Shown here in pieces: positions 6,538 to 30,165 of a DNA stretch of 46,357 nucleotides; positions within the stretch are counted from its first letter, which is position 1, and every line of letters starts with the position of its first letter. Origin of the DNA: a bacterium (lineage in GTDB: Bacteria; Patescibacteriota; Saccharimonadia; Saccharimonadales; Saccharimonadaceae); contig JAUIGH010000001.1 in NCBI GenBank assembly GCA_030429935.1, positions 1 to 46,357 of the forward strand. Direction: 5' to 3'. The position numbers and the translations under genes are program-made. The notes beneath the pieces are model-generated. The model saw nothing but the letters and a program-made list of their open reading frames with translations. It was not told the DNA's origin and searched no databases.

Positions 6538-6641
6538 CTCCCTTCAAAGGTGAATTCAAGCACATTCTGTCAATGAACAACTCCACACGCGGAGCAGTCA
6601 AAGACTTCAATGCTACACGAATAGAATTATAAATTACTTTA

Positions 6642-10235: not shown

Positions 10236-10309
10236 AGGATAATAGCTGTATGGACGATGCATGGCTCGATGAAGTAGCGCTGGAGCGCGAGGCAAAGGCC
10301 GGCTTCGGG

Positions 10310-13325: not shown

Positions 13326-13384
13326 AGATGTACACCAAAGGTGGCCCGAATGGGTCTAGGGTTTTGATATACATCCCGGTTCAG

Positions 13385-13413
13385 AAAAAGTGGCCAAGCA
13401 AGGCCACTTTTTG
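13385..13413. terminator. bidirectional rho-independent terminator
   Basis: AAAAA-GTGGCC-aagcaa-GGCCAC-TTTTT, between tRNA-Gln and the convergent GNAT gene. Confidence 0.6.
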
Positions 13414-13459
13414 GTTTGAAGCTCTTATGATTTGTACGAACAGGCAATCGGACGTATAG

Positions 13460-13979: not shown

Positions 13980-13988
13980 AATGACTCC

Positions 13989-15200
13989 TCATTCATTTAG
14001 TGTAGAGTGTATGGCTTCTTCGAGTAGGTTAAGCCCCTCGATTAGCACCTCTTCACTAATAGTTAATGCTGGTATGAATTTAACAACCTCATCTTTTGCT
14101 CCTACTGTTTCAATGACGAGTTTTCTTCGAAACAAAGCTTTGTAATGGTTTTTGCCATCTCCGCTTCCGGAAAACGAGTCCACACGAGAGGCCGCGTCCT
14201 CGGACCGTCGTGAAGGTTTCGAGATAAAGATCTTTTATTCTCTCTAGTCTTTCGCGAACAATTTTCTCTTTTCATTTCACTTCCGCTGAAAGCTCGTCCG
14301 ACCGCCAGAACTTTTCAAGTGCCTTGAGGCCGGCGACAATGCAAGATTATTACCCCGAAATGTGCCGTTAGGCTGCCCTGGCTTCCATATATCTAACTCT
14401 GGTTTAAGGAGTACGAGCGCCATAGGTAGGCCAAAGCCGGAAATTGACTTTGATAAGACGACATCTGGGTGTGTTTCGGCAAACTCAAAGCTAAAGAAAT
14501 CTCCAGTTCGTCCGCACCCTGCCTGGACATCGTCGACAATAAGAAGAATGCCCCTCCTAGCTGTTAAGTCGCGAAGGCGCTTTATCCACTCGGCGCTAGC
14601 GACATTTACACCCCCTTCACCTTGAAAAAGTTCAACAATGACAACTGCTGGCAGATCGACGCCGCTACTTGGGTCATCAAGAACTTTTTCTAAATATGCA
14701 ATATTGTCTAATCCATCAAAGTAGTTGTCATAAGGGGGAAAGACGGTGTCACTTAAAGGGGTACTAGAGGCGTTCCGGAACCATGAGCTGGACGTTGCTG
14801 CGAGCGAGCCTGAAATGAGTGACTAAATGCAATGACATTATGTAGTCCTGTTGCAAGACGAGCGATTTCCAGGGCTGCTTCAACTGCATTAGTGCCAGTG
14901 GGGCCAGTAAATTGAAGTTTATAGTCAAGAACGCGAAGTGTGAGGATGGTTGTCGTAAACTCCTTGATGAACGTAGCCTTAACCCTAGTGGCCATATCAA
15001 GTCCATGGATAATGCCATTACTCTGGAGATACTCGATCAGTGCCCGGACCATCGTTGGTTCGTTGTGTCCGTAATTGAGTGCGCCAGCGCCACGAAGAAA
15101 TCGATATAGCGACGCCGCTCGTCATCCCATATATAGGATCCTTCTGCCTAAAAGAGCGAAACTGAGAAAGAGCGAACACATCTTATTACATTTGATTCGT
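13989..15200 (-). pseudogene. class-III aminotransferase (diaminobutyrate--2-oxoglutarate transaminase-like), multiply frameshifted
   Basis: Minus-strand fragments in different frames: IDFF/GAGALNYGHNEPTMVRALIEYL, LQFTGPTGTNAVEAALEIAR, LLIVDDVQAGCGRTGDFFSFEFAETHPDVVLSKSISGFGLPMA..GQPNGTFRGNN, VKFIPALTISEEVLIEGLNLLEEAI. At least four frameshifts and in-frame stops. Confidence 0.75.
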
Positions 15201-15276
15201 ACTGATCGATTACGTCTGACGCTGTATTCGTGCTGTAATTTTACCAGAAATCAGCTTGTACGGTTATAATGTAGGT

Positions 15277-16707
15277 ATGAACTACGATTATGTCATTGTT
15301 GGTGGCGGTGCAATTGGGCTGGCTATAGCTTATCGACTCAAGAAATCCCACGAAGAGCGATCAGTACTAGTGCTTAATAGTAATGAAACTGGCACGGCAA
15401 GTCTTGCTTCGGGTGCTATGCTTGGCTGTTTTGGTGAAGTTACAAAATACACACTGAAAAACGAAGCTGGCAAAAAGAAATTTGACCTGATGTACGCTGC
15501 TCATAAGCAATGGGCGTCATGGCGCGAGGAAGTCGAAGCTTCAGCGCAACAATCTATCAGGCATACGCCTGGAAGCTATGTAATTCTTAACACCCACGGC
15601 GGATCCCTTGACGATGAAAACTTTGATGCAATGGTGCAAGCTTTGGTTAACTACGAAGAGCCTTATGAGTATGTTGCGCCGAAGGATATCCCGGGCCTCC
15701 ATCCAAATAATCTAGCCCGTCCACTTCGTGCAATTTATCTTCCAAATGAAGGTTCAATTGAAAGTAATCAATATGTTGAAGTGTTGAGAGTTGCCTGCCG
15801 GAATATTGGCATTACTCTCACAGACATTCACTCTCTTGGGGCTATTGAGCGCCGTGGTAATGATTATGTCGTGACTATTGACGATGAAACAAATATAACA
15901 ACGTCATCGGTGATTATTGCTACGGGCGCTTATACGAGCAGTGTCTTAGCAAAGGTGACGCCTACTGTCGGTGCAATGCCGGTGCTTGCTGGTAATGGCG
16001 TAGCTGCAGTAACAAAGCGTCAACTTGGTGAAGGCTTCAAGGCGACAGTGCGTACCGCGAATCGCGCAGGCTCCTGTGGGCTTCACATCGTACCAATGAG
16101 TGATGGGTGTGAATATATCGGTGCTACTAACGTTCTCTACAGCGAGCCCGAGGCGCGTATGACCGTTGGTCTCTCCCACTTCTTGTCCCAGTGTGCAATC
16201 GAGCAGCTTGACCTCAATATATATCACTCCTTCGTACAAACATGGCGCACAGGTAATCGTCCTGTTTCTTTGGACACCTTGCCACTGATTGGAAAAATAG
16301 ACGATCTGGGACTGTATGTTGCAACAGGGACGTATCGCGATGGACTTCACTGCTCACCTGTTATTGCGGATGCGCTAGTGGCCGTGATCGATGAGAGGGA
16401 AGCTCCATTGATCGAAAGCTTTAACCCGCAGCGAACTTTTACAGAGTTGATGTCGAAAGAAGTTTCTATGGACGAGTATGCTATGCAGGCAGTGTCCGGT
16501 GCCTATGAGAACTGGTATCGACCCGCATACTACATGAATGATGATGAAGTCTATAAGAGCGCTCGTCAGAAAGCCGCTGATATATACGACCAACTTCAGA
16601 TAAATGTTGGCCTTCATCCAGATATTCTTCTGCTTCTCTCTTCCGACGACTCAGCTATCGAGCGAGTAAGAGAGTATCTTCTGATTAACGAGGTGCAGGC
16701 GACATGA
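15277..16707 (+). CDS. FAD-dependent oxidoreductase (DAO / glycine-oxidase-like family)
   Basis: N-terminal Rossmann motif DYVIVGGGAIGLAIAYRL. 476 aa from ATG 15277. Confidence 0.75.
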   Translation: MNYDYVIVGGGAIGLAIAYRLKKSHEERSVLVLNSNETGTASLASGAMLGCFGEVTKYTLKNEAGKKKFDLMYAAHKQWASWREEVEASAQQSIRHTPGSYVILNTHGGSLDDENFDAMVQALVNYEEPYEYVAPKDIPGLHPNNLARPLRAIYLPNEGSIESNQYVEVLRVACRNIGITLTDIHSLGAIERRGNDYVVTIDDETNITTSSVIIATGAYTSSVLAKVTPTVGAMPVLAGNGVAAVTKRQLGEGFKATVRTANRAGSCGLHIVPMSDGCEYIGATNVLYSEPEARMTVGLSHFLSQCAIEQLDLNIYHSFVQTWRTGNRPVSLDTLPLIGKIDDLGLYVATGTYRDGLHCSPVIADALVAVIDEREAPLIESFNPQRTFTELMSKEVSMDEYAMQAVSGAYENWYRPAYYMNDDEVYKSARQKAADIYDQLQINVGLHPDILLLLSSDDSAIERVREYLLINEVQAT

Positions 16708-16973
16708 CGTCGGGTCGAGACCTTATTGACGCCGAGGGTCGTGTGACTCGCTGGCCTAAAAAATCCACTGAGCGCGAGCAGGTGCTTGGCTACCTGGCTT
16801 CAAAGTTCCAAAGCGACCGCACATACACAGAAATTGAAGTAAATGATATTTTGCGCCAGTGGCATACATATGAAGATTGGTCGTCTCTAAGACGCGATCT
16901 TATCGGTTACGGCTACGCAACTCGGGATAGAAATGGGCTCAAGTATCAATTTAAAGGACAGGGAGACGAATAG
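16704..16973 (+). CDS. DUF2087-like small protein
   Basis: RVTRWPKKSTEREQVLGYLASKF..YTEIEVNDIL...LRRDLIGYGY matches my memory of the DUF2087 pattern. The start overlaps the upstream stop (ATGA). Confidence 0.6.
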   Translation: MTSGRDLIDAEGRVTRWPKKSTEREQVLGYLASKFQSDRTYTEIEVNDILRQWHTYEDWSSLRRDLIGYGYATRDRNGLKYQFKGQGDE

Positions 16974-17479
16974 TGGAACAGATTCGTGACTACAGGCCGG
17001 ATACGGATGAAGCTGAAGTCTCAACACTCTTGAAAGAGTTTCAAGAACATCTCGCCACTGTCGATCAAGAAGATGAAATCCGAAGCTTTGTTTCTGATGC
17101 GGACGCACGCCGCTACCTAGATAAGATGGTCAATGATAGTACGGAAATGAATGGTAAGTTTTTGGTGCTCGAGCTGGATGGAAAGCTCGTTGGTTTCATT
17201 CAGGGGATCATTGACCCACGCAATGACCAAAGTGATGTCATGTACCAAACTACACACAATGCACAGATTGAGGGTTGGATCGGACTTGTCTATGTACGCC
17301 CCGAATATCGTGGACGTCGGTTTGGTATCAAGCTGATTGAGGCGATTAAGCAGCACTTTATAGCCAATGGCTGTACTACGCTCCGCCTCTTGGTTGCTCG
17401 CGATAATACTAATACGGTCAACTTCTATCACAAATATGGATTTACTGACCGCGACGTAGAAATGGCTATGCCGTTATAG
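16973..17479 (+). CDS. GNAT family N-acetyltransferase
   Basis: VYVRPEYRGRRFGIKLIEAI...NFYHKYGF. The GTG start overlaps the upstream TAG by 1 nt. Confidence 0.8.
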   Translation: MEQIRDYRPDTDEAEVSTLLKEFQEHLATVDQEDEIRSFVSDADARRYLDKMVNDSTEMNGKFLVLELDGKLVGFIQGIIDPRNDQSDVMYQTTHNAQIEGWIGLVYVRPEYRGRRFGIKLIEAIKQHFIANGCTTLRLLVARDNTNTVNFYHKYGFTDRDVEMAMPL

Positions 17480-17482
17480 ATC

Positions 17483-20400
17483 ATGACTAAAGCAGGCCGA
17501 CCACTTTATGCGTTTGTAGATGATTGTGCAGTACAGTGGCCTGAGATGCCTGCGCTTAGGGATGAACAGTATGTATATACCTATGGTGAGCTGAGTAAGC
17601 TTTCAAGTTACTTTGCTCATCGTATTTGTGCGACAGGTGACGTTGCGGGAAAGCACATCGGCCTGCTGTACGATCGCTCGGCCCAAAGTATTATCTTGTT
17701 GTTGGCTATTATGAAAGCCGGGGGTGTGTATGTTCCTCTCAACCGGGCATTGCCAAAAGATCGTCTTATGGAAATGGTGAGTGGAGCGGATATCACCCTT
17801 GTCGTCACTCCGGATGAGCCTTCTATTGCTATGGACCAGCCCACTATTGCTCTTGCGCCGATTGATCCTTTGCATGTCGCTATTCAGCCTCCGCTGCTTG
17901 CTAGTGAGGCACTAGCCTATGCAATTTTCACCTCTGGCTCAACGGGAATGCCGAAGCTTGCTCTGTTGAGGCACGAGGCTGTTGTGCATGTTATGACAGC
18001 GTTAGCTGAACGATATTATATCGCACGCAATGATCGTATGCTACAGTTCGCTAATCTCTCATTTGACGGGTCAATATCAGAAATCTTTGGTGCTTTTATC
18101 GCTGGCGCCGAGCTTATTATTCCGGGTGAGCAAACGACGCAAAGTCTTACGCGGCTGGCTGCCTATTTTGATAGCGAGGCTGTGAGTGTTGCTGTTTTGC
18201 CACCCTCGCTTCTTGCACACCTTCCGCTTAGCTTTCGGTCCTTAAAGACTATCGTTGTTGCGGGCGAAGCGTGCTCCTCTTCTCTTGCAAGAACGGTCAC
18301 AAAGCAAGTGCCGCATTTTATTAATGCATATGGTCCGACGGAATGTTCAATTTGTGTTTCAACCTATGAGGTGCCAAAAGATTTCGACGGAAGCATCATT
18401 CCAATCGGCGAGCCGCTCCCCGGCGTGAATACGGTCATACTGGATGAAAAAGGCCAGCCCGTCGCAAATGGAGTGACCGGTGAGCTGTATGTGGGCGGCC
18501 CTAGTCTATTTGATGGGTACTATAATGACTCGGCAAAAACATCTGCTGCGCTCATTCAGCGCGGGGCTGAGGGCCTATTTTATAAAACAGGTGACTATGT
18601 GACTCTTGAGGGTAAAATCCTTACGTACGTATCTCGATCCGATGATTATATAAAACTCCACGGCCTTCGTATCTCTCCCCTTGAGATTGAGGAAGCGATT
18701 CGGCACTCGGACGATTCTATTCGTGGTGCAGCTGTGGTATTGGTTGAGGATGGAGACGACAATAGTCTTGCTGCTTTCTATGAGAGCGCGCACGAGCTAC
18801 CTGTTGATGATATTCTTCAGTCGATAAAGCGCCAATTGCCGGCATATGCGGTGCCGCATAAGATTGTGCATCTTGCACACCTTCCGCTGACTGACAACAA
18901 AAAGATTAACCGTCGTGCACTTGCTGCACAGGTGCGGCCAAGTCTCGAACCGGCGCCAGCTTCGGATTCCTCTCTACGCGCGCTTTGGCAAACTACTCTA
19001 CGGGTGTCCATTGACGATGCAACTGATTTCTTCTTGGCGGGTGGCGACTCGCTGAAGGCGATGCGGTTAATTGCTGAAGTTGATCGGCAGTATGGAACAA
19101 GCTTAAACCTTGTGGATCTCTATAACCACTCCACCTTTGGTGATTTTTCTGCTCACATTGAAGCCTCTTCACCTTCGGCGTCTTTACGATCATACAACCC
19201 ACAGGACCTAACTCCATACGAGGTAATGATGTGGAGCGCGTCTGCACACTCGGGTAACGCAGGGGCGTACACGCTTGTGGAGGTTGTAGAGCCATATTTT
19301 GATGTAGACCCTATGCGACTTAAGCAAGCTATTGCGGCACTGTCTGATAACTTTTCTGCTGCATCGTATCGCTACATCCTTGGTGAGAATGGGCTTGAGA
19401 AACAACTGGCTTCAGGAATTAGTTTTGTTAATCATGGCGATCTCACTAGGGCGGAAGGTGACGCACTCGCCACTTCTCTTGCAAACGCTGGCATAGACCT
19501 TGCTGCCGATGCGCTCATTACAGTTCATTTTGCGCTTATTGACGCGTCCCCTACTATTATCATTCATGCTCATCATATTGTACTTAGTGCAAGTATTCTG
19601 AAGCTCTTTGTGGATGAGCTCTGGCAACGCTATGCTGGCTTGGCCGTAGTGCAGAGGGTCGAGGAAGCGCCTCGAGAATTCACCGAAGACGATTTAGCGT
19701 TTTGGAAAAAAGCTTACGACTCCACCGCTGATTATGTGCAATTGCCATGGAGCGGTATTCGGCAGCCAAAACCAAAGAACGACGGAGCTACCTTTGTAAC
19801 GACAATCGATGTATCTATGAATCGGCTAGTGTCAGAGCTTGGTATTACAAAATTTGTCTTTTACCGAAGTGTCTTCGCTCTTCTCCTCCATAGGCTTACT
19901 GGCCAACCTTCTTTTTACATTGGTAGCTCAGTTGATGTGCGTCATGGTGACTTCTTAGGGGCTCAGCCGGCAATGCTTAATTCACTACCTATTCTCTCTG
20001 TTCTTGAAAGTGAGCAGACGTTTAAGAGTTTTATCCTCGAGACACAGCAGGCTGTGCGGGCCGCCCTTAGTCATTGCCATGTACCCCTTCATGACATTAT
20101 GAAGCTTCACATATTTGAGCAAGATCGTCTCGTCGGTCCTTTTAACGTCTTGTTTGATTACGTCGAGAAGCCTAACTCTTACGAAATGCCCGGGCTTGGC
20201 ACTATTGATAGCAAGCAGTGGTTTAATTCCAGCGCTAAGCACGACCTGACTCTTACAGTTGTTGAATCGTCGGGCACTGAGTTGCAGTGGGAGTACGATA
20301 CTGACCTTCTGGATGAACGAACTGTGCAGCAATTTGCAACTATCTTCACCCACCTCTGTCATACGGTTCTGCACGACTTGCACGCTCCGATCGCTTCCCT

Positions 20401-23400
20401 CCCGCTTCTTGACGAGGGTGAGCGAGTGGCTATGCTAAGCATTGGCAGGGGTGAGACTCGAGCCCGCTCGGCAAGCTCATTCTACGAGCGGTTCTCTGAT
20501 ATGGTGAGGCGGCAACCCGATGCAATTGCTGTGCGACACCAGGGGCACAGCACAACGTATCAAGATCTGCACTACCTCGTGGAGCACTTCTCGGCAATTC
20601 TTGTGGAACAGGAACTGTCCTCAGACGCTCCTGTGGGAGTTTTTATGGAGAGGTCTCCGGAAATGGTCGCCATCATTGTTGCGCTTTGGAGGCTGGGCTA
20701 TGCGTATGTGCCTATCGAAACAACCCTCCCATTGCAACGTATCCGCTCAATTATTGAAACAACTCGAATGTCGCTTATGGTGACGAAAGTTACGCACCGG
20801 GCAAAGCTTCCTGTTGATAATATGCGGATTATCGATGAAACACATCAGCCGAAGACGATCTATACTCCCGAGACTACAGTATCGCCAAATACGCTTGCGT
20901 ATGTCATCTTTACTTCGGGATCCACGGGAACGCCTAAGGGCGTCATGATTGAGCACGCGGGTATGATGAACCACGCTGAAGGTATGATCGAATATCTCGC
21001 GCTTGATAATGCGTCGACGATTGCGCAGACTGCCTCGCATTCATTTGATATTTCTGTGTGGCAATTAACTACAATACTTATTGCTGGTGGAACGATTGCA
21101 ATCTATTCGAAAGACGAGCAAAGCAATCTCGATAGTTTTACGACGCGGCTTTTTGAGGACCGGGTCACTTTGTTGGAGCTCGTGCCATCATACATCAATA
21201 TCCTCCTCGAATATCTTGAGGATACGCACAATCAGCAGAAGCTAAAGAACATTGACGCCCTCATCTCGACGGGTGAGAACATCTCGTGGCCTATTGTCGA
21301 GGGTTGGCTGCAAAACATGCCAGGGAGTCGTTTAATGAATGCCTACGGACCGGCCGAGGCATCTGATGACACTAACTTGTTTACATTTAAAGATCTATCG
21401 GCAATGCAGCGACGAGGTCTTCCGGTTGGTGCTTCCCTTGCTAATGTTAATGCTTACGTTCTAGATGAAGCGCTAAATCCTCAACCAATTGGTGTGCAGG
21501 GTGAAATCTATATTGCAGGCATTGCAGTGGGCCGAGGATATATTAATGATCCTGAGCGAACTCGCAAGAGCTTTATTAGCAATCCTCACACGGGTGAGCG
21601 TATGTATAAAACGGGCGACCTTGGCTATTGGTCCTCGGAGGGTCAACTTGTGTATTTAGGGCGCTCTGACTTTCAGGTCAAAATTCGAGGCTTCCGGATC
21701 GAACTCGAAGAAATTGAGGCCCACATCATTCGCTACCCTCATATTACGTCAGTAGCGGTAATGGTGGTTGACCGGAATAATTCCAAGCAGCTCCACGCTT
21801 ATGTCACTGCTGATATAGATATTGATAGTAGTGTGGTGCTAAGTCATCTTCGCGACCATCTCCCTGACTATATGGTTCCTTCGAGTATTGTTCAGTTATC
21901 GGCTCTGCCGTTAAACAATAGTGGAAAGATTGATCGTCATTTTCTTGCCAACAAAGAGCGTCTGCGTTTCAAGGAAGTTGAGGAAATTGCTGGGCCGAGC
22001 GTTGAAGAAGCAGCAGTAATGGCGGTATGGCGCGAAGTCTTTGGGTTGGATTATATGACGGTTGACGATGACTACTATGCGCTTGGCGGAGACTCGATTA
22101 CGTCTTTTCGCGTCTATGCCAAGCTCAGCGCAAAGGGCTACCAGCTTACTCTTCAGGACATCCTTGCCTTCCCTATCCTGAAAGACTTCGCGAGAACCAT
22201 GACATCTGAGTCAGTTGACGTGCGGCAGGTACCTCGGATCGACAAGGCATTATTGCCGACACCGATTCAATCCCGACTCCTGGCTGCCGGGTCTAAAGAA
22301 GTAATGGCGCAGAATATTAGTCTCAAAGGTCACTGGGAGCGTGAGCGACTTAATACTGCTATCCAGGCGTCGGCACGGAACCAAGGTGTCTTTTATCTGA
22401 TGTTCGACGCAGATGGACAGCGCTTTGGCCTGGAGCCCCAATTCAAAGAGGCATATGCATTCGTTGAGTCATCTGTTGCTGAGGATGATGCTTTTGACAG
22501 GCTGAACAGGGAGCTGACGCGGAGTGTGGTTTTTGCTTATGGTGCCGAGGGTGACGACACTACAGTAAGGGCGCTTTACCTGTCGGCGAATCATTTGGTA
22601 ATGGATGTAGTGTCATGGAATATCTTTATTGCCGCGGTGAACGATGCGTATGAGGCGACGTCACGTGTCGATAATGATATCGATTACACATTTGGCTCAT
22701 GGGCACAGGCCATGCAAGATGCTGATGACCCTTCGTCTGAAATATTAGACTATTGGCGGGGTGTTCTTTTGCAAACGGTTGATGCGACGCGTGCATTAAA
22801 GCAACTTTTTGTTTACGACATTCCTGATCGGCAACTCTTTACGATGGACGCACCCCTTCCTCTGGTACAATTTACAGACGCGTCGGTTTATCTAGCCGTA
22901 TTACAAGCGCTTGCGCAAGTCCTTGATATTGCTCAGTCGGGGATATTAATAGAAACTCATGGACGGTACGGGGAGGTGTTAGGCATTGACCTCTCAAAGA
23001 CGGTGGGGTGGTTTACTCACCTCTTACCCCTGACTGGGGCGACTAGCCGTGATATTGAATCTATTCTTCGTGTAGACAATATGACTAAAGTGGCTTATGG
23101 CTTGGCAACTCAACGAGATTTACTGAATCGCGAACTAGAGCCACTAGTGGTTGTAAACTATCTTGGCAAATCTTCTAATATGAGTGGCTATGCTATGCGC
23201 CATAGTGCCCAGGAGAGGCCGATCGGCAAAGAATTACTGGAGCTGTCTATCTATGAAGACGGCTCGAATTTGTGCATTAAAGTCGTGCTCTATGCGACAC
23301 CGAAGGAGGATGAATTTGTACAGAAACTCCTTACTGCTATTACCCGGCAGCTCTCTGCGGGTGAGGCTAATTTAGAAAAAAGTCGTCTTGATGCTATTTT

Positions 23401-23428
23401 GAAAAGAATCGGAGCAAACTGTGGATAG
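17483..23428 (+). CDS. non-ribosomal peptide synthetase, two modules: A-T-C-A-T-E
   Basis: A1 motifs: AYAIFTSGSTGMPK, FDGSISE, NAYGPTE, GELYVGG, YKTGD, SRSDDYIKLHGLRISPLEIE. T1 is GGDSL (Ser523, nt 19049-19051). C-like motif HHIVLSA (aa 697-703). A2 motifs: LAYVIFTSGSTGTPKG, FDISVWQ, NAYGPAEASDD, GEIYIAG, YKTGD, GRSDFQVKIRGFRIELEEIE, NSGKIDR. T2 is GGDSI (Ser1538). The E-like domain has LPTPIQ and NHLVMDVVSW. Confidence 0.9.
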   Translation: MTKAGRPLYAFVDDCAVQWPEMPALRDEQYVYTYGELSKLSSYFAHRICATGDVAGKHIGLLYDRSAQSIILLLAIMKAGGVYVPLNRALPKDRLMEMVSGADITLVVTPDEPSIAMDQPTIALAPIDPLHVAIQPPLLASEALAYAIFTSGSTGMPKLALLRHEAVVHVMTALAERYYIARNDRMLQFANLSFDGSISEIFGAFIAGAELIIPGEQTTQSLTRLAAYFDSEAVSVAVLPPSLLAHLPLSFRSLKTIVVAGEACSSSLARTVTKQVPHFINAYGPTECSICVSTYEVPKDFDGSIIPIGEPLPGVNTVILDEKGQPVANGVTGELYVGGPSLFDGYYNDSAKTSAALIQRGAEGLFYKTGDYVTLEGKILTYVSRSDDYIKLHGLRISPLEIEEAIRHSDDSIRGAAVVLVEDGDDNSLAAFYESAHELPVDDILQSIKRQLPAYAVPHKIVHLAHLPLTDNKKINRRALAAQVRPSLEPAPASDSSLRALWQTTLRVSIDDATDFFLAGGDSLKAMRLIAEVDRQYGTSLNLVDLYNHSTFGDFSAHIEASSPSASLRSYNPQDLTPYEVMMWSASAHSGNAGAYTLVEVVEPYFDVDPMRLKQAIAALSDNFSAASYRYILGENGLEKQLASGISFVNHGDLTRAEGDALATSLANAGIDLAADALITVHFALIDASPTIIIHAHHIVLSASILKLFVDELWQRYAGLAVVQRVEEAPREFTEDDLAFWKKAYDSTADYVQLPWSGIRQPKPKNDGATFVTTIDVSMNRLVSELGITKFVFYRSVFALLLHRLTGQPSFYIGSSVDVRHGDFLGAQPAMLNSLPILSVLESEQTFKSFILETQQAVRAALSHCHVPLHDIMKLHIFEQDRLVGPFNVLFDYVEKPNSYEMPGLGTIDSKQWFNSSAKHDLTLTVVESSGTELQWEYDTDLLDERTVQQFATIFTHLCHTVLHDLHAPIASLPLLDEGERVAMLSIGRGETRARSASSFYERFSDMVRRQPDAIAVRHQGHSTTYQDLHYLVEHFSAILVEQELSSDAPVGVFMERSPEMVAIIVALWRLGYAYVPIETTLPLQRIRSIIETTRMSLMVTKVTHRAKLPVDNMRIIDETHQPKTIYTPETTVSPNTLAYVIFTSGSTGTPKGVMIEHAGMMNHAEGMIEYLALDNASTIAQTASHSFDISVWQLTTILIAGGTIAIYSKDEQSNLDSFTTRLFEDRVTLLELVPSYINILLEYLEDTHNQQKLKNIDALISTGENISWPIVEGWLQNMPGSRLMNAYGPAEASDDTNLFTFKDLSAMQRRGLPVGASLANVNAYVLDEALNPQPIGVQGEIYIAGIAVGRGYINDPERTRKSFISNPHTGERMYKTGDLGYWSSEGQLVYLGRSDFQVKIRGFRIELEEIEAHIIRYPHITSVAVMVVDRNNSKQLHAYVTADIDIDSSVVLSHLRDHLPDYMVPSSIVQLSALPLNNSGKIDRHFLANKERLRFKEVEEIAGPSVEEAAVMAVWREVFGLDYMTVDDDYYALGGDSITSFRVYAKLSAKGYQLTLQDILAFPILKDFARTMTSESVDVRQVPRIDKALLPTPIQSRLLAAGSKEVMAQNISLKGHWERERLNTAIQASARNQGVFYLMFDADGQRFGLEPQFKEAYAFVESSVAEDDAFDRLNRELTRSVVFAYGAEGDDTTVRALYLSANHLVMDVVSWNIFIAAVNDAYEATSRVDNDIDYTFGSWAQAMQDADDPSSEILDYWRGVLLQTVDATRALKQLFVYDIPDRQLFTMDAPLPLVQFTDASVYLAVLQALAQVLDIAQSGILIETHGRYGEVLGIDLSKTVGWFTHLLPLTGATSRDIESILRVDNMTKVAYGLATQRDLLNRELEPLVVVNYLGKSSNMSGYAMRHSAQERPIGKELLELSIYEDGSNLCIKVVLYATPKEDEFVQKLLTAITRQLSAGEANLEKSRLDAILKRIGANCG

Positions 23429-26270
23429 TCCAATTACTGACATTGTGCCTGCAACTCCCGTACAGCATGGGTTGCTCTATGTTGAGCGTTCGTATGCAAA
23501 AGGCTCGCTCTATCATGAGCAGTACATTGCTAAGTTGGCGGGCCCCCTGGACCTGGGCCGTCTAGAAATTGCATGGCAAAAAACCGTTGCTGCACACACT
23601 ATTTTGCGAACTATTTTTGACTGGGATGGACAAAATGAACCGATGCAAATTGTACTGCGGCATTATGCTGCGCCGTTTGTTGTTATGGCTGATCCGCTGG
23701 AGGAGAATGAACGTACGGCATTTGTAGAGCGGGACGCTCAGGATTCATTTCAATTTGATACAACTCCACCCCATCGACTCACTCTCATGAAGCTCGATGA
23801 TCAGACGCACTGGCTAGTTTTTACCTACCACCATCTATTACTAGATGGCTCCTCAGTCTCGGCGTTATTTGATTACTTGGCATGGCAGTATAATCAGCCG
23901 TCCGAAGTGCGAGAAATTAATGACTACGGCGCATACTCTCGTTGGATACAGAGTTATAGGCAACAGGAAAATTCTGTTGATGCGTGGCATAGCTATGCCG
24001 AGGGTATTAGTCTCCCAGCTTCGCTGGTGCAAGAATATAGCAATGATCAGACTCGCGAGCATTATCAGTATATTGATCGCGAGGCGGTAGATCGGCTGGT
24101 CGCTGCGGCTCGTGCGCATCACCTCACGCTTAACAGTATTTGTCAGGTTATGTGGGCATATACATTTGCGCTGAGTCGTGAGCAGCCACAGGTGTGCGCT
24201 GGTTCACCGACAATGGTCAAGCCACTTGATAGCAGCCTGGATTCTGTAGTGGGTCTTTGTATTAATACATTGCCTTATATACTCTCGTTCGATCGCGAGC
24301 AATCTCTGGTTGATATTGCTGTGCGGCATCAACAGAACTGGGGAGGGCTTATCGAGCACTCTCGAATCGGGCTCGCTGAGATCAAGAAAGCTATTGGATA
24401 TCATCACTATGGCGATCCGTTCGACACCATACTAACGTACACGGACGCTCGTGACAGAATACTCCCTAGGCTTGATGGTGTAGATTGGCGGGTCCTGTCG
24501 CATAATGAAGTAACTCAATATCCCCTATCGCTGGACGTTGTTTATGATGTTCATTCAATTGAATTAAAAGCAACCTACAGAGATGCTCACTATAATGCAC
24601 CGACCATTTCACGTCTTGTGCAGTCTTTTGCTGATAATCTTAGCCTTTTCATTGAACACCCCGATACCATTCCTCACCTTCGGTCTTATACTGATGTAGA
24701 TGACGAGACTGTTGCCCCTCAGGGAAGCGGGCGTGAGGCACTGACCGAGAAAATTGCACAGATATGGACGGATGTATTCGGCGTTGAAGTTGGATATGAT
24801 TCAAACTTTTTCGACCTTGGTGGTGACTCAATTAGCTCTCTTCGTATTGTCAGTAAACTCCTTGAGGCGGGCGTTACGGCTTCGATGCGCGATGTCTTCG
24901 ATTCACCGACCCCGGAGCTGCTTGCTCGAGTGGTGTTATCGACCGCAATAGATGACCCTGTTACGCACATGGATCTGCCTGCAAGCGTTGAGGAGAAGGC
25001 TCGTCAGTTATACGGAAGCAATATTAGTGCAGTTGTCCGCGCTTCGAGTGTCCAGCAAGGCATTATCCGTCGTCCATCATCCAAGCAGAATTTATATCAT
25101 GACCAATCAACGTTTACCTACAAAGGCCGCTTGGACCCTGAACTATTTGAAAAAGCGTGGAACATTGCTGCACATAAAAATGACGCGATGCGCATGCGAT
25201 ATTTTTCGAAGGACGATGTGTGGTATGTGTGTGCGTTAAAAGACAGCGCCATATCTATGCGGTATTTCGACCTCAGGGATACACCACGACAGAGCGAGGC
25301 TATACAGCGCGCTATTGAAGACGACTTGGCGACGCCTTTTAATCTTCAGCGCGACCCACTTATTAGACTAAGGCTATATCGAACTGGCGATGAGACACAC
25401 GTTCTCTTTTTGAGTTTCCATATTCTTGTTACCGACGGTTGGAGCTTTGCTTTCATGATGGACGATGTTTTCACTGCCTACGAACACCTTATTGAGGAGC
25501 GATCGTTCGATCTTCCTAGTCGCCGCCTGACATATGTTGACTATCTCCACTCGCTTACGGTGAGCGATACTATTTCCGGTCGCCAGCATTGGTCTCAATA
25601 TCTCCATGATGCTGCGGGAGCTAAGGGTGTGTCGATCTCAAATTTTTCAAACCTTGACGTGGTTTTTGCTCATCTTGACGGAGACGAGACGGATGTAATT
25701 CAGCGGTTTGCAAGTGCAAAGAAGCTATCACTCAACTCGGTCGTGCAGGCTGCTTGGGCAACAATTAACGCACGACAATCGGAACCGGTTATATTTGGTG
25801 CAACAACGTCCGCTCGTTTGCTTCATGGTGTCAATTACGACGATACTGTTGGTCTTTTCTTTAATGACATCCCTATTATTGCTCATGTCGAGGGTCGGAG
25901 TATTGAGCAGCTGGCAAATATAATTCAGCGTGATTTTCAGACGAACCTAAAGTATAGCTACGTATCTTCTTATGATATTGCGGAGATGGTGGGTCGGGAT
26001 CCCGAAGAAGCGCCATATGATAGTCTTATTGTTTTCGAAAACTACCCTAAGATGCAGGAAGATAGCCTGAAAGAATCCCGCCGTGGTGGAGTGATGAATA
26101 CGGACTATTGGCGACGGGACATGGCCGACATTCCAATGACGTTGTATGTAGAGGTGCGCAATGGCGTGACAGACATTAAACTTTCTTATAACAATACCGT
26201 CGTTTCTCGTGATGTTGCTCAGGGGCTTGTCGATGAGTTTATGCGGACGTTAAAGGTATGTACATTGTAG
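23421..26270 (+). CDS. NRPS protein with C-T-C architecture (no adenylation domain)
   Basis: The GTG start overlaps the upstream stop. C2 has PATPVQHGLLY and a canonical HHLLLDG (aa 137-143). T3 is LGGDSIS (Ser470). C3 has SFHILVTDGWS (aa 665-675). Confidence 0.85.
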   Translation: MDSPITDIVPATPVQHGLLYVERSYAKGSLYHEQYIAKLAGPLDLGRLEIAWQKTVAAHTILRTIFDWDGQNEPMQIVLRHYAAPFVVMADPLEENERTAFVERDAQDSFQFDTTPPHRLTLMKLDDQTHWLVFTYHHLLLDGSSVSALFDYLAWQYNQPSEVREINDYGAYSRWIQSYRQQENSVDAWHSYAEGISLPASLVQEYSNDQTREHYQYIDREAVDRLVAAARAHHLTLNSICQVMWAYTFALSREQPQVCAGSPTMVKPLDSSLDSVVGLCINTLPYILSFDREQSLVDIAVRHQQNWGGLIEHSRIGLAEIKKAIGYHHYGDPFDTILTYTDARDRILPRLDGVDWRVLSHNEVTQYPLSLDVVYDVHSIELKATYRDAHYNAPTISRLVQSFADNLSLFIEHPDTIPHLRSYTDVDDETVAPQGSGREALTEKIAQIWTDVFGVEVGYDSNFFDLGGDSISSLRIVSKLLEAGVTASMRDVFDSPTPELLARVVLSTAIDDPVTHMDLPASVEEKARQLYGSNISAVVRASSVQQGIIRRPSSKQNLYHDQSTFTYKGRLDPELFEKAWNIAAHKNDAMRMRYFSKDDVWYVCALKDSAISMRYFDLRDTPRQSEAIQRAIEDDLATPFNLQRDPLIRLRLYRTGDETHVLFLSFHILVTDGWSFAFMMDDVFTAYEHLIEERSFDLPSRRLTYVDYLHSLTVSDTISGRQHWSQYLHDAAGAKGVSISNFSNLDVVFAHLDGDETDVIQRFASAKKLSLNSVVQAAWATINARQSEPVIFGATTSARLLHGVNYDDTVGLFFNDIPIIAHVEGRSIEQLANIIQRDFQTNLKYSYVSSYDIAEMVGRDPEEAPYDSLIVFENYPKMQEDSLKESRRGGVMNTDYWRRDMADIPMTLYVEVRNGVTDIKLSYNNTVVSRDVAQGLVDEFMRTLKVCTL

Positions 26271-26968
26271 CGCTTCTTGATATTAGGCTAGTAAATGATG
26301 GGATTAAGACAAAGGCCGTGTCCCTCTTGTCGCCTGAGGAAATGGAGCGTTATGGGAGATTCCGTCATGCGTCCGATGCTAATCTATTTCTTTTTGGTCG
26401 GTTTCTTGCGCGCTGTCTTGTTTCCCGTGTCGCCACGAGGCGACCTGAAGATGTTGCAATCCTGGTTGCCGGTACCGCAACTAAGCCCTATGAGTCGCAG
26501 CGGCTGATAGAGTTTAGCATTTCACACAGTGGAACCTTTGTGGCAGTTGCTGTCTCTCAGCGACCGGTTGGTATCGACGCACAGGTGCACGACCAGACAC
26601 GGACTGATGTGTTTGATAGATTCTTTACTGCTGAAGAAAAAGGCTACGCCCACCAGTCGTTGAAGAATTTTTATAGATTATGGACGTCTGTGGAGTCGCT
26701 AGCAAAGATTACAGAGCTCGGCTTCAATGAAGCGCTCATGAATCGTACCCCCCGGTTCAAGAGTGATTTGAGTGGCTACACTTTCAATCAGACAAGCTAT
26801 TACATAAGTACGCTCGTTCAAACAGAGGATCTGACATTATCTGTCGTTACAGCTGAAGACGTGCTCTTTCGGAAGTACCCGTCAGCGAGAGAGGGACTCC
26901 TTGCTGGGATCGATACTGATGAGCTTTCACTTGAAGTTTACTCTGGGAGTGTAGACTCTGACGTGTAG
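26258..26968 (+). CDS. 4'-phosphopantetheinyl transferase, Sfp type
   Basis: FSISHSGTFVAVAV...VGIDAQ and WTSVESLAKITELG resemble the Sfp-family core motifs. The start overlaps the upstream gene by 13 nt. Confidence 0.75.
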   Translation: MYIVALLDIRLVNDGIKTKAVSLLSPEEMERYGRFRHASDANLFLFGRFLARCLVSRVATRRPEDVAILVAGTATKPYESQRLIEFSISHSGTFVAVAVSQRPVGIDAQVHDQTRTDVFDRFFTAEEKGYAHQSLKNFYRLWTSVESLAKITELGFNEALMNRTPRFKSDLSGYTFNQTSYYISTLVQTEDLTLSVVTAEDVLFRKYPSAREGLLAGIDTDELSLEVYSGSVDSDV

Positions 26969-27975
26969 ACTTCGGCGTCACGTATATTGGCGCCGGTTTC
27001 AAATCCTCTTACAAATGAGGCGAATGCACCTGGTGTGACATCGTGGTTGTATCCACCGCCCATAATAACGAGAGTGCGCATGTTCATGTGACCAAGGCGG
27101 TCTCCAATTTCGGCATATTCCTGATCATCCAAATGGGTTAGTGGTGGCAGGCCTGGCCACTCGCGAGTATGGCCGTCAAACCCTGCTTCGATAATAAGGT
27201 AGTCGGCACCAAATGACTTAATCTTTTCTTGGGCACGTGCTAATAATTCGAAGTATTCCTCGTTTGAGATGCCAATAGGAAATGGAAGATTAAGGATGGT
27301 CCCCTCTCCTTCGCCAATGCCAGTCTCGTCTGCATGGCCAGTGTGTGGGAAGATCTCATTGGGATCGGCATGAAGGGATACGTAAAGGACCTCTGATTCA
27401 TCTTGAAAGATGTCCTGGATGCCATCACCGTGATGAACATCAAAATCCAGGATTGCAACTCGTTTGCCTGCTTCTTTGAATGCCTCGGCGGCAACGGCGG
27501 CATTATTGAAGAAACAAAAGCCATGATAGAACTCTCGCCCTGCGTGATGTCCGGGTGGTCGAGAGACGGCAATTGTAAGGCGCTTCTCTTCATCGTTCAG
27601 CAGTGCGTCGGCCGCAGCTAGAGATGCTTCGGCCGAAAAGAGGGCTTGCTCAAATGTGCCTGGATAAATTGCCGAAGCATTTGTCTCAGTGTCGCGGTCA
27701 TACGGCGACTTTAATGGGTTGTTATCTGTTGCTTGTAGACCAGTCTCATATATGGCTTGTATCATTACGGGTGAATGAAGTTTTGAGACAATGGCATAAG
27801 TTTCCTTGTGGACTTCAGGGACTACTACCCACTCTGTAGGAATGGTGTCGGAGAGGAGTTCATTTATGATGCCGTAAAGCCGCTCTGGAACATCCCATGG
27901 CTGTCCCTCGTCATCAATCCATCCCTTATGCTTGTAATGCTCGGAGTTATGGTACACGTGTCGTTCGGCTGGCAT
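26938..27975 (-). CDS. histone-deacetylase-family amidohydrolase (AcuC / acetylpolyamine amidohydrolase-like)
   Basis: RPPGHHAGREFYHGFCFFNNAAV, DFDVHHGDGIQDIF, SLHADP..FPHTGH. Start chosen at ATG 27975. The 3' end overlaps the PPTase 3' end by 31 nt. Confidence 0.8.
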   Translation of the reverse strand: MPAERHVYHNSEHYKHKGWIDDEGQPWDVPERLYGIINELLSDTIPTEWVVVPEVHKETYAIVSKLHSPVMIQAIYETGLQATDNNPLKSPYDRDTETNASAIYPGTFEQALFSAEASLAAADALLNDEEKRLTIAVSRPPGHHAGREFYHGFCFFNNAAVAAEAFKEAGKRVAILDFDVHHGDGIQDIFQDESEVLYVSLHADPNEIFPHTGHADETGIGEGEGTILNLPFPIGISNEEYFELLARAQEKIKSFGADYLIIEAGFDGHTREWPGLPPLTHLDDQEYAEIGDRLGHMNMRTLVIMGGGYNHDVTPGAFASFVRGFETGANIRDAEVYTSESTLPE

Positions 27976-28080
27976 AGTAGATTTTACTTTACAGTAATAA
28001 TGTAAACGTATCAATACAGCCACAATTTACACCAAAAGTGAACCAAATGGGTCAAAAGGGTTCATGTAAATCATGGATAG

Positions 28081-28108
28081 AAAAACGACCGATTTCGGTC
28101 GTTTTTTT
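28081..28108. terminator. bidirectional rho-independent terminator
   Basis: AAAAA-CGACC-gatttc-GGTCG-TTTTTTT, downstream of the recombinase-like gene. Confidence 0.55.
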
Positions 28109-28162
28109 GTTTCGATTCTCGCAAGCCGCTCACCCCAATAAGGAAGTGAGTCTAGGACTTTA

Positions 28163-29140
28163 TTAAACTCGTATCGATTCTCGATTATGGAGTGCAAGCT
28201 TTAAGTTAAGATTTCGTATGAGTTGTGTTTCCTCGAAGAGCGTTCCGTCCTGAACGACGTATTTTATGTAGGCACCAATTGCATCCTCTTCTCTATAAGA
28301 ATCACTTGTCGCTCTGATGATCTTTGTGAACTTGTCTATGGCAATACGTAGGTCTGGCTCAAGGGCCTCAATGTCTGTGATGAGATTATTGCAATGCTTG
28401 ATAAGCCCGTTTACAATATCTCGCTCGCGTCCAAACGGTTCTTTGCAGTCATAGTCAACCTGTCTTGAGCAATGATAGTACATAAAGACACCTACTGTGC
28501 CATTCTTGTACTTTTTCTTGCGTTCTTCGCAGACGATCGTTGAGCCGCAGCTGTAGCAGGTCATGAAGCGCTTATACGGAAATTCTTTTGCACCCCATTT
28601 GGATTTCATAGGCACTTTTAGTTGTTCTTGAACTATGTCAAACAAGTCCTTTGTAATTAGTGGCTCGTGACTGCCTTCGTACCATTGGCCACTGTCTTTG
28701 GGAAATTCAAATTTACCGTAGTAGTATGGATTTTTTAGTATTTTGTAAATCATACTCAGTGAGATGTGTTTTTCTTTTCGTGTCGTTACTGTATTATCTT
28801 CGAGCCATGACCGAATATGTCTTCCGCTCTTGCCGTTGGCTGACATTTCGAACATCTGCCTGATATATGGCGCTCGCAGCTCGTCAATAATGACATCTCG
28901 ACCATTACCACTTCCTCGCGTGAAGTAGCCGAGCGGTAGTATGCATAGCCGCCACCCCATTTCGCATTTGGCTCGGATGCCACGCTTTACGTTGATCGCC
29001 CGGTTATCGTTTTCAAGCTTTTCAATGTAGTCGTTAACCGCATGGGCTGGCTGTGATTTAACATGTTTATCTTTTTCCTGCAGGTTTTTACGCAAAGACC
29101 TAAGACTATCAATATAAGATGATAGCTGGTTCTTGCTCAT
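28163..29140 (-). CDS. large-serine-recombinase C-terminal portion (recombinase domain + zinc ribbon); catalytic N-terminal domain absent
   Basis: LPLGYF...IDELRAPYIRQMFEM..GKSGRHIRSWLEDN...IYKILKNPYYYGKF and CYSCGS...YYHCSRQ fit the recombinase and zinc-ribbon domains. No YxRVSxxxQ-type serine catalytic domain is found in the ORF or in the 260 nt upstream. Confidence 0.65.
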   Translation of the reverse strand: MSKNQLSSYIDSLRSLRKNLQEKDKHVKSQPAHAVNDYIEKLENDNRAINVKRGIRAKCEMGWRLCILPLGYFTRGSGNGRDVIIDELRAPYIRQMFEMSANGKSGRHIRSWLEDNTVTTRKEKHISLSMIYKILKNPYYYGKFEFPKDSGQWYEGSHEPLITKDLFDIVQEQLKVPMKSKWGAKEFPYKRFMTCYSCGSTIVCEERKKKYKNGTVGVFMYYHCSRQVDYDCKEPFGRERDIVNGLIKHCNNLITDIEALEPDLRIAIDKFTKIIRATSDSYREEDAIGAYIKYVVQDGTLFEETQLIRNLNLKLALHNRESIRV

Positions 29141-29380
29141 CGCAGTAAACTCTTCTAGTGGAGTAACATCAATGGCTAATTCTCTTTGCAGTCATGTCAC
29201 TTCAACGCGGACACTTTGTGCTATTTCTTTGAGCTTATCTTCCTTTTGCCACGGTAATTCAGGGAGGTTATAGTCTGCCATGTACCGTAGGTATTCCGAC
29301 CTATTGTCAAATGATTTTGGTTTATAGAATTCTTTGAGGTAAATATTAAGGGTGATCAAGGTACAATAAAAATGTCCTTA

Positions 29381-29410
29381 TAAAGAGAAGAGGCGCACCG
29401 AAGTGCGCCA
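29381..29410 (-). terminator. rho-independent terminator of the high-GC gene
   Basis: The minus strand reads GGCGCAC-ttcg-GTGCGCC followed by TCTTCTCTTT, 24 nt after the stop. Confidence 0.5.
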
Positions 29411-29433
29411 ATTCCCGAACTGCTGCTGTGGAT

Positions 29434-29856
29434 CTACACGGTCACCTTGGGGCGGTAGCCCATGATGGCGACCATGCCCATGCCGGCGAGCTCGCGACCA
29501 TGCGGGTCGTCGTACTCCATGCCGAGCATAGTGCGCGGGTCCAGGATGTCCCACCAGCCCATGATCTTGCCGAAGGCGAAGAGCATGAACGCGCGGCGCT
29601 GGTCCCCCAGGGCTCCACCGGCGACGAGGTAGTTGATCTCCTCGCCGAGTGGCGGAACTGGCTGACCCCAGCTATCGCTGGGCCACTCCTTGAGGAGTTC
29701 GATCATCTCGGCGGCGTGCTCGTGGACCTTGGCGGTCTTCAGGGCGAGCGCCATGACGAAAAAGTTGAACACCTCGCTGCCCTCGACGGGCCGCTGGTCC
29801 TCATCCACCTCGCCGAGCGAGTCGACGAGAATGGCGTTGATTCGTGCGATATCCAT
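29434..29856 (-). CDS. hypothetical protein encoded by a high-GC, high-GC3 gene
   Basis: 140-aa minus-strand ORF with an AAAGGAAG RBS and a terminator. Third codon positions are almost all G/C, unlike the surrounding island. No family recognised. Confidence 0.6.
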   Translation of the reverse strand: MDIARINAILVDSLGEVDEDQRPVEGSEVFNFFVMALALKTAKVHEHAAEMIELLKEWPSDSWGQPVPPLGEEINYLVAGGALGDQRRAFMLFAFGKIMGWWDILDPRTMLGMEYDDPHGRELAGMGMVAIMGYRPKVTV

Positions 29857-29979
29857 CGCGGGTACTTCCTTTCAGTCGGGAACAATTATACTATATCATA
29901 TACATCAAATATAATCAATAGCATAGAGTCTACATCTCGTGTCTCATTTCAGGTATCAGATCCGTATGCTTAGCCATGG

Positions 29980-30013
29980 AAAATTCCGTAGTTCTACTGA
30001 GCTACGGAATTTT
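29980..30013. repeat. 12-bp inverted repeat / orphan terminator-like hairpin
   Basis: AAAATTCCGTAG-ttctactgag-CTACGGAATTTT. No adjacent gene ends here. Confidence 0.35.
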
Positions 30014-30148
30014 TCTTTGCTCGATGTAGTGGATTCGAACTCCCGAATGCGAAGCATGAGGTGTGAAGACTGCCAGCGGCAGTCTGCAAGGCGATGTCAC
30101 ACGTGAACTATGTTCAAGAGACTGATTCGCGGGGTCGCGGAACGTGAC

Positions 30149-30165
30149 TCGAATCCCTCCACCCC
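30149..30165 (+). repeat. right copy of the 17-nt direct repeat (attR-like tRNA-Gln 3' remnant)
   Basis: tcgaatccctccacccc followed by gcca. The preceding bases (gtgac) cannot form the T stem, so this is a remnant and not a tRNA. Confidence 0.8.

Follow-up and report, generated by a model that had tools for sequence, protein, structure and literature searches.

Family-conserved departures from canonical catalytic motifs in a non-ribosomal peptide synthetase line on a Saccharibacteria genomic island

We analysed a window of 46,357 nt, contig JAUIGH010000001.1, which is one entire contig of an 823-kb, 88%-complete assembly (GCA_030429935.1) of a bacterium of the Saccharimonadaceae. It carries an NRPS (non-ribosomal peptide synthetase) locus of three ORFs (open reading frames), intact by direct translation and overlapping by 8 nt and 13 nt, which encode the synthetases NRPS1 and NRPS2 and a phosphopantetheinyl transferase (PPTase). 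The synthetases are built from adenylation (A), carrier (T), condensation (C) and epimerisation (E) domains, several of them with unusual catalytic motifs, and an earlier note had asked whether the line is functionally eroding or carries out atypical chemistry. Here, we report that the unusual motifs are invariant, or conserved as a class, in all relatives found and that every domain is under purifying selection, and we consider it likely that the locus works as an NRPS line, is horizontally mobile and belongs to a small Saccharibacteria/Patescibacteria family, whose odd motifs are selected family signatures and not decay. The features of the line are listed below with matches to Pfam and to hidden Markov models (HMMs) of the C superfamily and its subtypes (LCL, DCL and E), the subtype models having been built here from context-labelled domains.

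17483-23428, forward strand: NRPS1, 1981 aa, A1-T1-C1-A2-T2-E (Pfam AMP-binding twice, PP-binding twice, Condensation, AMP-binding_C)
17483-18952, forward strand: A1 adenylation domain, pocket code DGSSVAAICK (aligned to GrsA PheA)
19193-20467, forward strand: C1 condensation domain, LCL-type (LCL 122.8 versus DCL 60.6 bits)
19571-19591, forward strand: C1 motif HHIVLSA (NRPS1 aa 697-703), both His kept, Asp replaced by Ser and Gly by Ala
20468-21967, forward strand: A2 adenylation domain, pocket code DIWS(I/L)TADDK
22208-23425, forward strand: E-like domain, read as an epimerase (E 69.2 versus LCL 34.3 bits; weak phmmer matches to the E domains of TycA and TycB)
22589-22618, forward strand: E motif NHLVMDVVSW (NRPS1 aa 1703-1712), first His replaced by Asn, second His and Asp kept
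22952-22969, forward strand: ETHGRY, counterpart of EGHGRE, first Glu kept (aligned to LEGHGRE of TycA)
23421-26270, forward strand: NRPS2, 949 aa, C2-T3-C3, without an A domain (Pfam Condensation twice, PP-binding)
23829-23849, forward strand: canonical C2 motif HHLLLDG (NRPS2 aa 137-143)
24696-24965, forward strand: T3 carrier domain with GGDSIS (Ser470; PP-binding match aa 443-504), no adenylation domain of its own
24966-26267, forward strand: C3, condensation-like domain at the end of the line, catalytic His absent (C-superfamily HMM, 265 bits)
25416-25439, forward strand: C3 motif FHILVTDG (NRPS2 aa 666-673), Ile668 at the second-His position
26258-26968, forward strand: Sfp-type (group II) PPTase, 236 aa (Pfam PF22624 and PF01648; aligns to Sfp)
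26567-26584, forward strand: VGIDAQ (PPTase aa 104-109), with Asp107 and Gln109 of the Asp-Gln-Glu metal triad
26690-26707, forward strand: VESLAK with Glu146, the third triad member (by alignment to Sfp)

Results

Register and rarity of the unusual motifs

Direct translation returns exactly the five motif strings that the earlier note had read at these positions (HHIVLSA, NHLVMDVVSW, HHLLLDG, FHILVTDG and VGIDAQ). The register assumed for them holds as well. The C1 motif aligns gap-free to HHIASDA in the C domain of TomB, and the E-like motif aligns to HHLVVDGISW of the TycA E domain. C3 aligns gap-free to PvdL (IHHLVVDG), SrfA-C (YHHIILDGW) and its own neighbour C2 (YHHLLLDG), and the PPTase aligns to PIGIDIE of Sfp, with Gln109 on Sfp Glu109 and the distal Glu and Lys in place. 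These four independent alignments rule out a register error as the cause of the odd motifs, and none of them brings the expected His, Asp or Glu to the catalytic positions that had been reported to lack it.

We compared the motifs with a background drawn from matches to our own queries, in which 304 unrelated NRPS proteins contribute 1,259 C-superfamily domains aligned to one HMM, so that the frequencies are rough. In HHxxxDG, position 1 is His in 97% of these domains, position 2 is His in 94% and the final position is Gly in 86%, and the Asp position is Asp in 99.8%, with two Glu, one Gly and no Ser (0 of 1,259). The departures of C1 and C3 from this motif are real and rare. C1, C2 and C3 all match PF00668, and the scores against the C-superfamily HMM are 115 bits for C1, 32 for the E-like domain and 330 for C2, next to the 265 bits of C3. 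C2 alone keeps both the second His and the Asp of the canonical motif, C1 being without Asp and Gly and C3 without the second His, all as described before. Outside E domains, position 2 is a residue other than His in 53 of the 130 terminal background domains versus 24 of the 866 internal ones; 47 of these 53 terminal cases are the HVxxxDP domain of MbtF-named proteins.

Purifying selection and conservation across the family

The one full DNA relative found for the locus is an 18-kb contig (DATMTU010000124.1, hereafter L001) with the same gene order and proteins 81-94% identical. Omega, the ratio of non-synonymous to synonymous substitution (dN/dS), was estimated per domain by the Nei-Gojobori method (NG86) between the window and L001, which is 84-88% identical, at dS of 0.40-0.62. 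Along NRPS1 it is 0.15 in A1, 0.16 in T1, 0.14 in C1, 0.07 in A2, 0.06 in T2 and 0.24 in E, followed by 0.15 in C2, 0.32 in T3 and 0.15 in C3 of NRPS2 and 0.19 in the PPTase. The bootstrap upper limits are at most 0.33 except in T3 with its 90 codons (0.62), and all intervals lie far below 1. The odd domains C1 and C3 are indistinguishable in omega from the canonical C2. A second relative, an independent soil contig of 25.7 kb that is 97% identical and spans the whole 9.5-kb NRPS-PPTase stretch, differs by 277 substitutions, among them about 96 amino-acid changes, and by no indel over the 9.5 kb, with a rough pN/pS of 0.16-0.2. The dN/dS comparison, suggested earlier as a check, thus finds purifying selection in every domain and no sign of relaxation.

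Among protein relatives, we found nine C-T-C proteins (48-97% identical, including one named Candidatus Microsaccharimonas and one named Candidatus Saccharibacteria), eight full-length NRPS1 proteins (48-97%) and eleven PPTases, several of these on shared contigs. An exhaustive HMMER search with C3 added four more C-T-C proteins at 27-31% identity, together with P0135, a 3017-aa protein from a JGI metagenome that forms a single polypeptide of A-T-C-A-T-E-C-T-C; one of the distant C-T-C proteins is encoded on a 396-kb contig in a metagenome-assembled genome (MAG) of Patescibacteria. A metagenome scan with the family alignment, based on generic patterns, returned ordinary NRPS loci only, at most 30% identical to C3. 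The odd motifs are common to relatives down to 27-50% identity and therefore long predate this genome. Omega of 0.06-0.32, the soil contig without indels and the conservation of the motifs in all relatives found contradict the proposal that the line is eroding.

C1 keeps both His and has lost the Asp

HH(I/L)VLSAS is invariant in nine sequences down to 42% identity, and both His and 60-odd further positions of C1 are invariant down to 29%. C1 is heavily remodelled. In HMM numbering, the motif changes are Asp146 to Ser and Gly147 to Ala, and R63, R123, S149, G278 and G290 are replaced as well; G290 is Gly in 99.7% of the background and Pro in C1. In a look at whether the Arg partner of the Asp had been lost too, neither position 63 nor position 123 had an Arg; SYRY has one two residues further on, which may be a shifted equivalent, and R279 is kept. 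An AF2 model returns a confident C fold (pLDDT 83, pTM 0.83), with pLDDT above 90 around the motif. In the fused outgroup P0135, C1 reads HHIVTDA with a normal RHxxLRT motif, and since that C1 keeps the Asp, the change from Asp to Ser arose inside the Saccharibacteria clade and was then fixed.

In the literature, the HHxxxDG Asp is given a structural role, in a clamp with a conserved Arg (PMC8968710), and a C domain that is under selection without a residue deemed indispensable elsewhere is notable. The best solved sequence match of C1 is TomB of tomaymycin synthetase (HHxxxDA), at an E-value of only 6e-14. Both have Ala in place of the Gly; in contrast to C1, TomB keeps the Asp, and its donor is an anthranilate-type acid. 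Most likely, C1 would still join the aromatic amino acid predicted for A1 to the diaminobutyrate predicted for A2.

The E-like domain, C2 and the PPTase fall within known variation

The E-like domain is the most divergent of the line, as its score against the superfamily HMM and its omega indicate. Its family pattern is (N/D)HxxxD(V/L/I/A)(V/I)SW, in which the His and the Asp are invariant, as are E(T/S)HGR and VNYLG; in residue terms, H1704, D1708, E1824, H1826, G1827 and R1828 are invariant across the family. All 263 background E domains have the second His and the Asp, whereas two carry Asn at position 1 and four carry Val at the Gly position; the domain here keeps the His, Asp and Glu present in all 263. 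The published E motif is HHxxxD and does not include the Gly (PMC10510592). P0135 has HHLVCDI at this site, which places the change from His to Asn, like that in C1, inside the Saccharibacteria clade, followed by fixation. The second His, the Asp and the EGHGRE Glu are all present in the domain, and a DCL-type C domain comes next: C2 scores 232.6 bits with the DCL model versus 204.2 with the LCL model, and among solved structures it best matches the C domain that PvdL has after an E domain. By these residues, the E-like domain would be an epimerase of the ordinary kind, its rare Asn occupying a first position that is non-essential.

The PPTase is the only one of the genome (a single PF01648 match). 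Gln109 (GxDxQ) occurs in 11 of 12 relatives, and D107, E146 and K150 are invariant. Thus the Glu usual in Sfp-type enzymes is missing, as had been noticed, and Gln stands in its place; by alignment, human AASDHPPT has Met at the same position. The enzyme has the two domains, the Asp and Glu ligands and the WxxxE(S/A)xxK motif of group II, and lies outside the three-ligand Asp-Glu-Glu subgroup. In a survey of 556 group II PPTases, the prokaryotic two-ligand enzymes (10 of 369) were all of the Asp-Gln-Glu kind; residues 1 and 3 of the triad are essential, the middle one is not, and the Gln enzyme Sppt is active (PMC4103896). This Synechocystis PCC 6803 enzyme (Wang et al. 2014, PMC4103896) resembles the PPTase here in being a two-domain Sfp type with Asp, distal Glu and a middle Gln, a likeness that rests on the triad residues; Sppt differs in serving fatty-acid acyl carrier proteins, whereas the PPTase here stands in an NRPS operon. 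The PPTase belongs to the known functional Asp-Gln-Glu subgroup, and its motif is not a defect. Atypical chemistry, the other option raised earlier, is unnecessary for the E-like domain, which keeps the invariant residues, and for the PPTase with its active triad; it is plausible for C3 and perhaps for C1.

Predicted substrates

The A1 pocket segment is closest to GrsA (1AMU) and TycA, both Phe-activating, and its code is invariant in nine family members. A1 probably activates an aromatic amino acid, and since the code has Ser where Trp239 stands, the pocket would be larger. For the pocket segment of A2, the nearest matches are 9n1u and the diaminobutyrate (Dab) module of PvdL in its A domain, with identical anchored positions; the Dab assignment of PvdL is from PMC11267755. 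The A2 code is conserved across the family, and the A-domain core motifs and carrier serines are intact. A2 is thus predicted to activate L-2,4-diaminobutyrate, probably, and the match to the PvdL Dab module links the cluster to Dab together with an intact ectB-type transaminase gene that adjoins it in L001. PvdL, from pyoverdine synthesis, with its Tyr-E and C-A(Dab) modules, also resembles this line in its C domain after E, which is like C2, and in combining an aromatic residue with diaminobutyrate. The two differ in order and stereochemistry, since this line starts with the aromatic residue and has its E domain in the Dab module; moreover, the C domains of PvdL are canonical and PvdL hands its chain on to further synthetases.

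The whole 823-kb genome has two AMP-binding domains, both within NRPS1, so T3 must be loaded by A1 or A2. Loading in trans by A2 is the probable route, by analogy with CmnI, in which a module without its own A domain can be loaded in trans (PMC12400406). T3 is 32% identical to T2 (21968-22207), both carrying GGDSI(S/T)S, and T1 (GGDSLKA) gave no match to T3; the likeness lends weak support to the idea that T3 is served by the same partners as T2. CmnI and VioI, from capreomycin and viomycin synthesis, share with T3-C3 the combination of a carrier and a C domain without an A domain, in a cluster that uses one A domain twice (PMC12400406), and both sequence and fold comparisons of T3-C3 return CmnI among their matches. 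They differ in that the CmnI C domain is internal with a canonical HHxxxD, and the trans-loading of T3 is deduced solely from the missing third A domain. The product would be an aromatic residue followed by D-Dab, to which T3 would possibly add another Dab.

C3 is a candidate release domain without the catalytic His

The C3 motif is (H/S/N)(I/V/L)xxxDGW in ten close and five distant relatives, so that the first His is not kept either. The four distant C-T-C proteins and P0135, which reads NVIIMDG here, share the His-less motif together with FFND, ENYPK and WRR. Because distant and fused relatives have it too, the His-less state of C3 is ancestral to the family. Invariant across 27-97% identity are the DG, the Asn of the C5 motif with its adjacent Asp, ENYPK and WRR. 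The AF2 model of C3 (pLDDT 88, pTM 0.84) superposes on the C domains of SrfA-C, PvdL and TycB with TM scores of 0.82-0.86, and the DCL subtype model scores slightly above the LCL one.

Several identities proposed for C3 were rejected. It is no recent duplicate of C2, to which it is only 24% identical. His560 is not a credible substitute base, as YH(E/D)Q is also present in the canonical C2, and the corresponding residues of SrfA-C and BacC are Y-x-EQ. A heterocyclisation (Cy) domain is excluded by the lack of DxxxxD in C1 and C3 and by the low rank of the Cy structure 5T3E among the fold matches. The fungal CT domain, with the motif SHxxxDx (PMC10510592), needs a second His, and no member has one at position 2. 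A glycopeptide X domain would have HRxxxDD, which C3 lacks; nothing follows C3, and the island holds no P450. The second His is not required in all C domains (PMC10510592), and His-less C-like domains have other roles (PMC13638107). Like C3, the X (HRxxxDD), interface (I) and CMxgE (HPxxxDG) domains have the C fold, have lost the second His and are kept by selection in working lines (PMC11546977, PMC13638107). They differ in being internal or preceding a thioesterase (TE), and in having partner P450s, alpha-ketoglutarate dioxygenases or an FMN monooxygenase, none of which is present here; C3 is terminal and, compared with X and CMxgE, has Ile/Val rather than Arg/Pro.

No TE lies within the island, and neither a TE nor a reductase ends the line; with C3 in last place, it is the only candidate release domain. 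Judged from its sequence and position, C3 is most likely a release domain that would employ an amine nucleophile, which would attack the chain plausibly without a His base. In one version, the side-chain amine of a terminal Dab on T3 would form a five-membered lactam; in the other, the chain would be captured by a free amine. The terminal domain of MbtF, a synthetase of the mycobactin family, has been proposed to release its chain by lactamisation through the side-chain nitrogen of a terminal lysine derivative, and release by C3 would parallel this proposal, with the same logic applied to a terminal Dab. The MbtF-type domain (HVxxxDP) is likewise the last of its line, with no TE, an aliphatic residue for the second His and the Asp kept. 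It differs in having Pro where C3 has Gly and in an A domain of its own; FFND, ENYPK and WRR are signatures of the C3 family. At 22-27% identity and with its Gly kept, C3 was rejected as a member of the MbtF type and at most works alike.

The island and its host genome

The NRPS locus lies on an island at 13304-30165, flanked by a 17-nt direct repeat at a tRNA-Gln gene, with a GC content of 47-48% versus 54.5% in the flanks. Besides the synthetase genes, it carries the following features.

13304-13320, forward strand: left copy of the 17-nt direct repeat, within tRNA-Gln (13251-13325); right copy at 30149-30165
13463-13979, reverse strand: second GNAT as a pseudogene with a single frameshift (the intact 176-aa protein of L001, as tblastn query, returns two pieces in frames -1 and -3)
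13995-15235, reverse strand: pseudogene of an ectB-type diaminobutyrate-2-oxoglutarate transaminase, spread over three frames with at least 4 stops and several frameshifts
15256-16707, forward strand: FAD-dependent ThiO/DAO-family oxidase, at the head of the operon (Pfam DAO 134 bits; TIGR02352 124 bits, below cut-off; omega 0.03)
16704-16973, forward strand: DUF2087 protein, 89 aa (PF09860, 78 bits)
16973-17479, forward strand: intact GNAT N-acetyltransferase (Pfam Acetyltransf_1; omega 0.11)
26938-28023, reverse strand: intact HDAC-type (acetyl-amine) deacetylase (PF00850, 216 bits; omega 0.03)
28163-29140, reverse strand: truncated serine-recombinase remnant, Recombinase domain alone (matches the middle part of CcrB/XisF)

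Proteins of the contig flanks are 63-69% identical to those of a same-genus genome of 0.9 Mb. Synteny with that genome comprises a helicase gene and its two neighbours (window 4717-10738) and ends there; the polysaccharide deacetylase and GT2 genes next to tRNA-Gln (11068-13166) have no counterpart in the 40 kb of it examined. No C-T-C homologue was found in 400 sampled genomes of the same class. Samples of soil, rhizosphere and biofloc contain the island. Biosynthetic clusters are seldom reported from bacteria of the candidate phyla radiation (PMC7298704), and in the literature searched we found no account of the NRPS family described here or of any NRPS in Saccharibacteria.

L001 is labelled as a Dongiaceae MAG, although its island genes are 81-94% identical at the protein level to those of a contig from Saccharibacteria; a mistake in binning probably explains the alphaproteobacterial label, the alternative being a transfer. 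The oxidase gene (15256-16707 versus L001:1740-3287) is 78% identical in nucleotides and 48% at third positions, with dS of about 2.3, and for the deacetylase gene (26938-28023 versus L001:13515-14552) dS is about 0.9. At 85-89% identity and dS of 0.4-0.5, the NRPS genes are less diverged from L001 than these two, whose amino-acid identity is nevertheless high (87-94%). The island is a mosaic, which suggests recombination or unequal ages of its parts. At 21668-21717, contigs of other organisms in three metagenomes match about 40 nt and then continue unlike the window; this is no joint, as the match is a trivial one to the conserved A8 core motif of A2. Downstream of the deacetylase, where the window has the truncated recombinase, L001 carries a PrnB-like gene (14593-15651, forward strand; PF08933, a tryptophan-modifying family), a hint that some versions of the cluster might use a building block made from tryptophan.

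Decay among the accessory genes

Erosion in the island is real and confined to accessory genes, a decay that the earlier note had missed. Both pseudogenes have intact homologues just upstream of the cluster in L001, the ectB-type gene at 553-1815 on the reverse strand (629 bits to TIGR02407, cut-off 552) and the second GNAT at 14-544, also on the reverse strand. In the window, Pfam matches only a C-terminal fragment of the second GNAT. The lower identity of the pseudogene region was discarded as a sign of relaxed constraint, as the intact neighbouring oxidase gene is equally diverged (78% in nucleotides).

Discussion

Several observations count against a working line with an active C1. Codon-level selection was estimated from one full DNA relative and a rough second comparison, and very recent relaxation could escape notice. 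The background C domains are no unbiased sample, and we found no RNA run that carries the stretch. The 88%-complete assembly holds no further copy of the ectB-type transaminase or of the second GNAT, and with the transaminase a pseudogene and no other copy, the strain may lack the diaminobutyrate precursor; it may rely on outside diaminobutyrate or have lost production recently, of which the NRPS genes show no sign so far. For C1, mutation of the Asp abolishes product formation or condensation in AmbB, TycB, SrfA-B and EntF (in EntF, the fold is disrupted too) and lowers the activity of VibH 300-fold (PMC8968710). An active C1 would therefore need compensation.

Some of these observations would also suit a line that is dying in a reduced genome, with ORFs open by chance and odd motifs that inactivate their domains. 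The two pseudogenes and the truncated recombinase would belong to such a course, as would the highest omega values falling in the E-like domain and T3, the lack of RNA runs and the absence of the cluster from all 400 sampled genomes. This explanation has to accommodate omega of no more than 0.32 anywhere, with C1 and C3 equal to the canonical C2, and 9.5 kb free of indels in an independent sample, as well as the sharing of each odd motif with relatives down to 27-50% identity and the intact pocket codes, carrier serines and A-domain core motifs; we regard it as very improbable. Slighter still is the chance that C1 is catalytically dead and the first module skipped or used differently, the product coming from A2 alone. 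The requirement for the Asp in activity or folding wherever it has been mutated (PMC8968710) would fit a dead C1, as would the loss of the near-universal R63, R123 and G290 and the low superfamily score of 115 bits. Against it, omega in C1 (0.14) is that of C2, both His and the 60-odd other positions persist down to 29% identity, the modelled fold is confident around the motif, and A1 and T1, useless without C1, are equally constrained, with an invariant A1 pocket code.

The main rival to release by C3 is a non-catalytic scaffold which, like X and I domains, would recruit the oxidase, the GNAT or the deacetylase to the T3-bound intermediate, while release would be spontaneous, by lactamisation of diaminobutyrate, or left to another hydrolase. 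C-like domains without the second His do act in recruitment or as interfaces (PMC11546977, PMC13638107), the operon has three stand-alone tailoring enzymes, the modelled C3 appears to retain a complete C fold, and an alpha/beta-hydrolase-like match exists elsewhere in the genome. X domains, in contrast, precede a TE, and C3 has nothing after it; the island has no P450 or alpha-ketoglutarate dioxygenase; and the invariance of polar active-site residues in C3 across 27-97% identity exceeds the needs of a docking surface. We therefore hold a scaffold role to be unlikely, though less so than erosion or a dead C1, and retain amine-dependent release by C3 as the preferred reading.

For the host, the locus means that a genome of about 0.9 Mb carries, on an island at tRNA-Gln, a complete NRPS with its own PPTase. 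HHxxxDG checks are widely used to call NRPS domains inactive, and here two of three C domains fail them in a line under selection; the PPTase and E-domain motifs are nothing out of the ordinary, and it would be wrong to mark them as defects. More tentatively, and with the odds somewhat against the full proposal, Patescibacteria may have their own small-NRPS family, in which the terminal domain would represent a new His-independent release class acting by Dab lactamisation or amine capture, and in which C1 would work without the Asp. If this is true, the Asp of HHxxxDG can be compensated in nature, and if both domains are active, they would be natural test cases for the debated roles of the Asp and the His and for bacterial product release without a TE.

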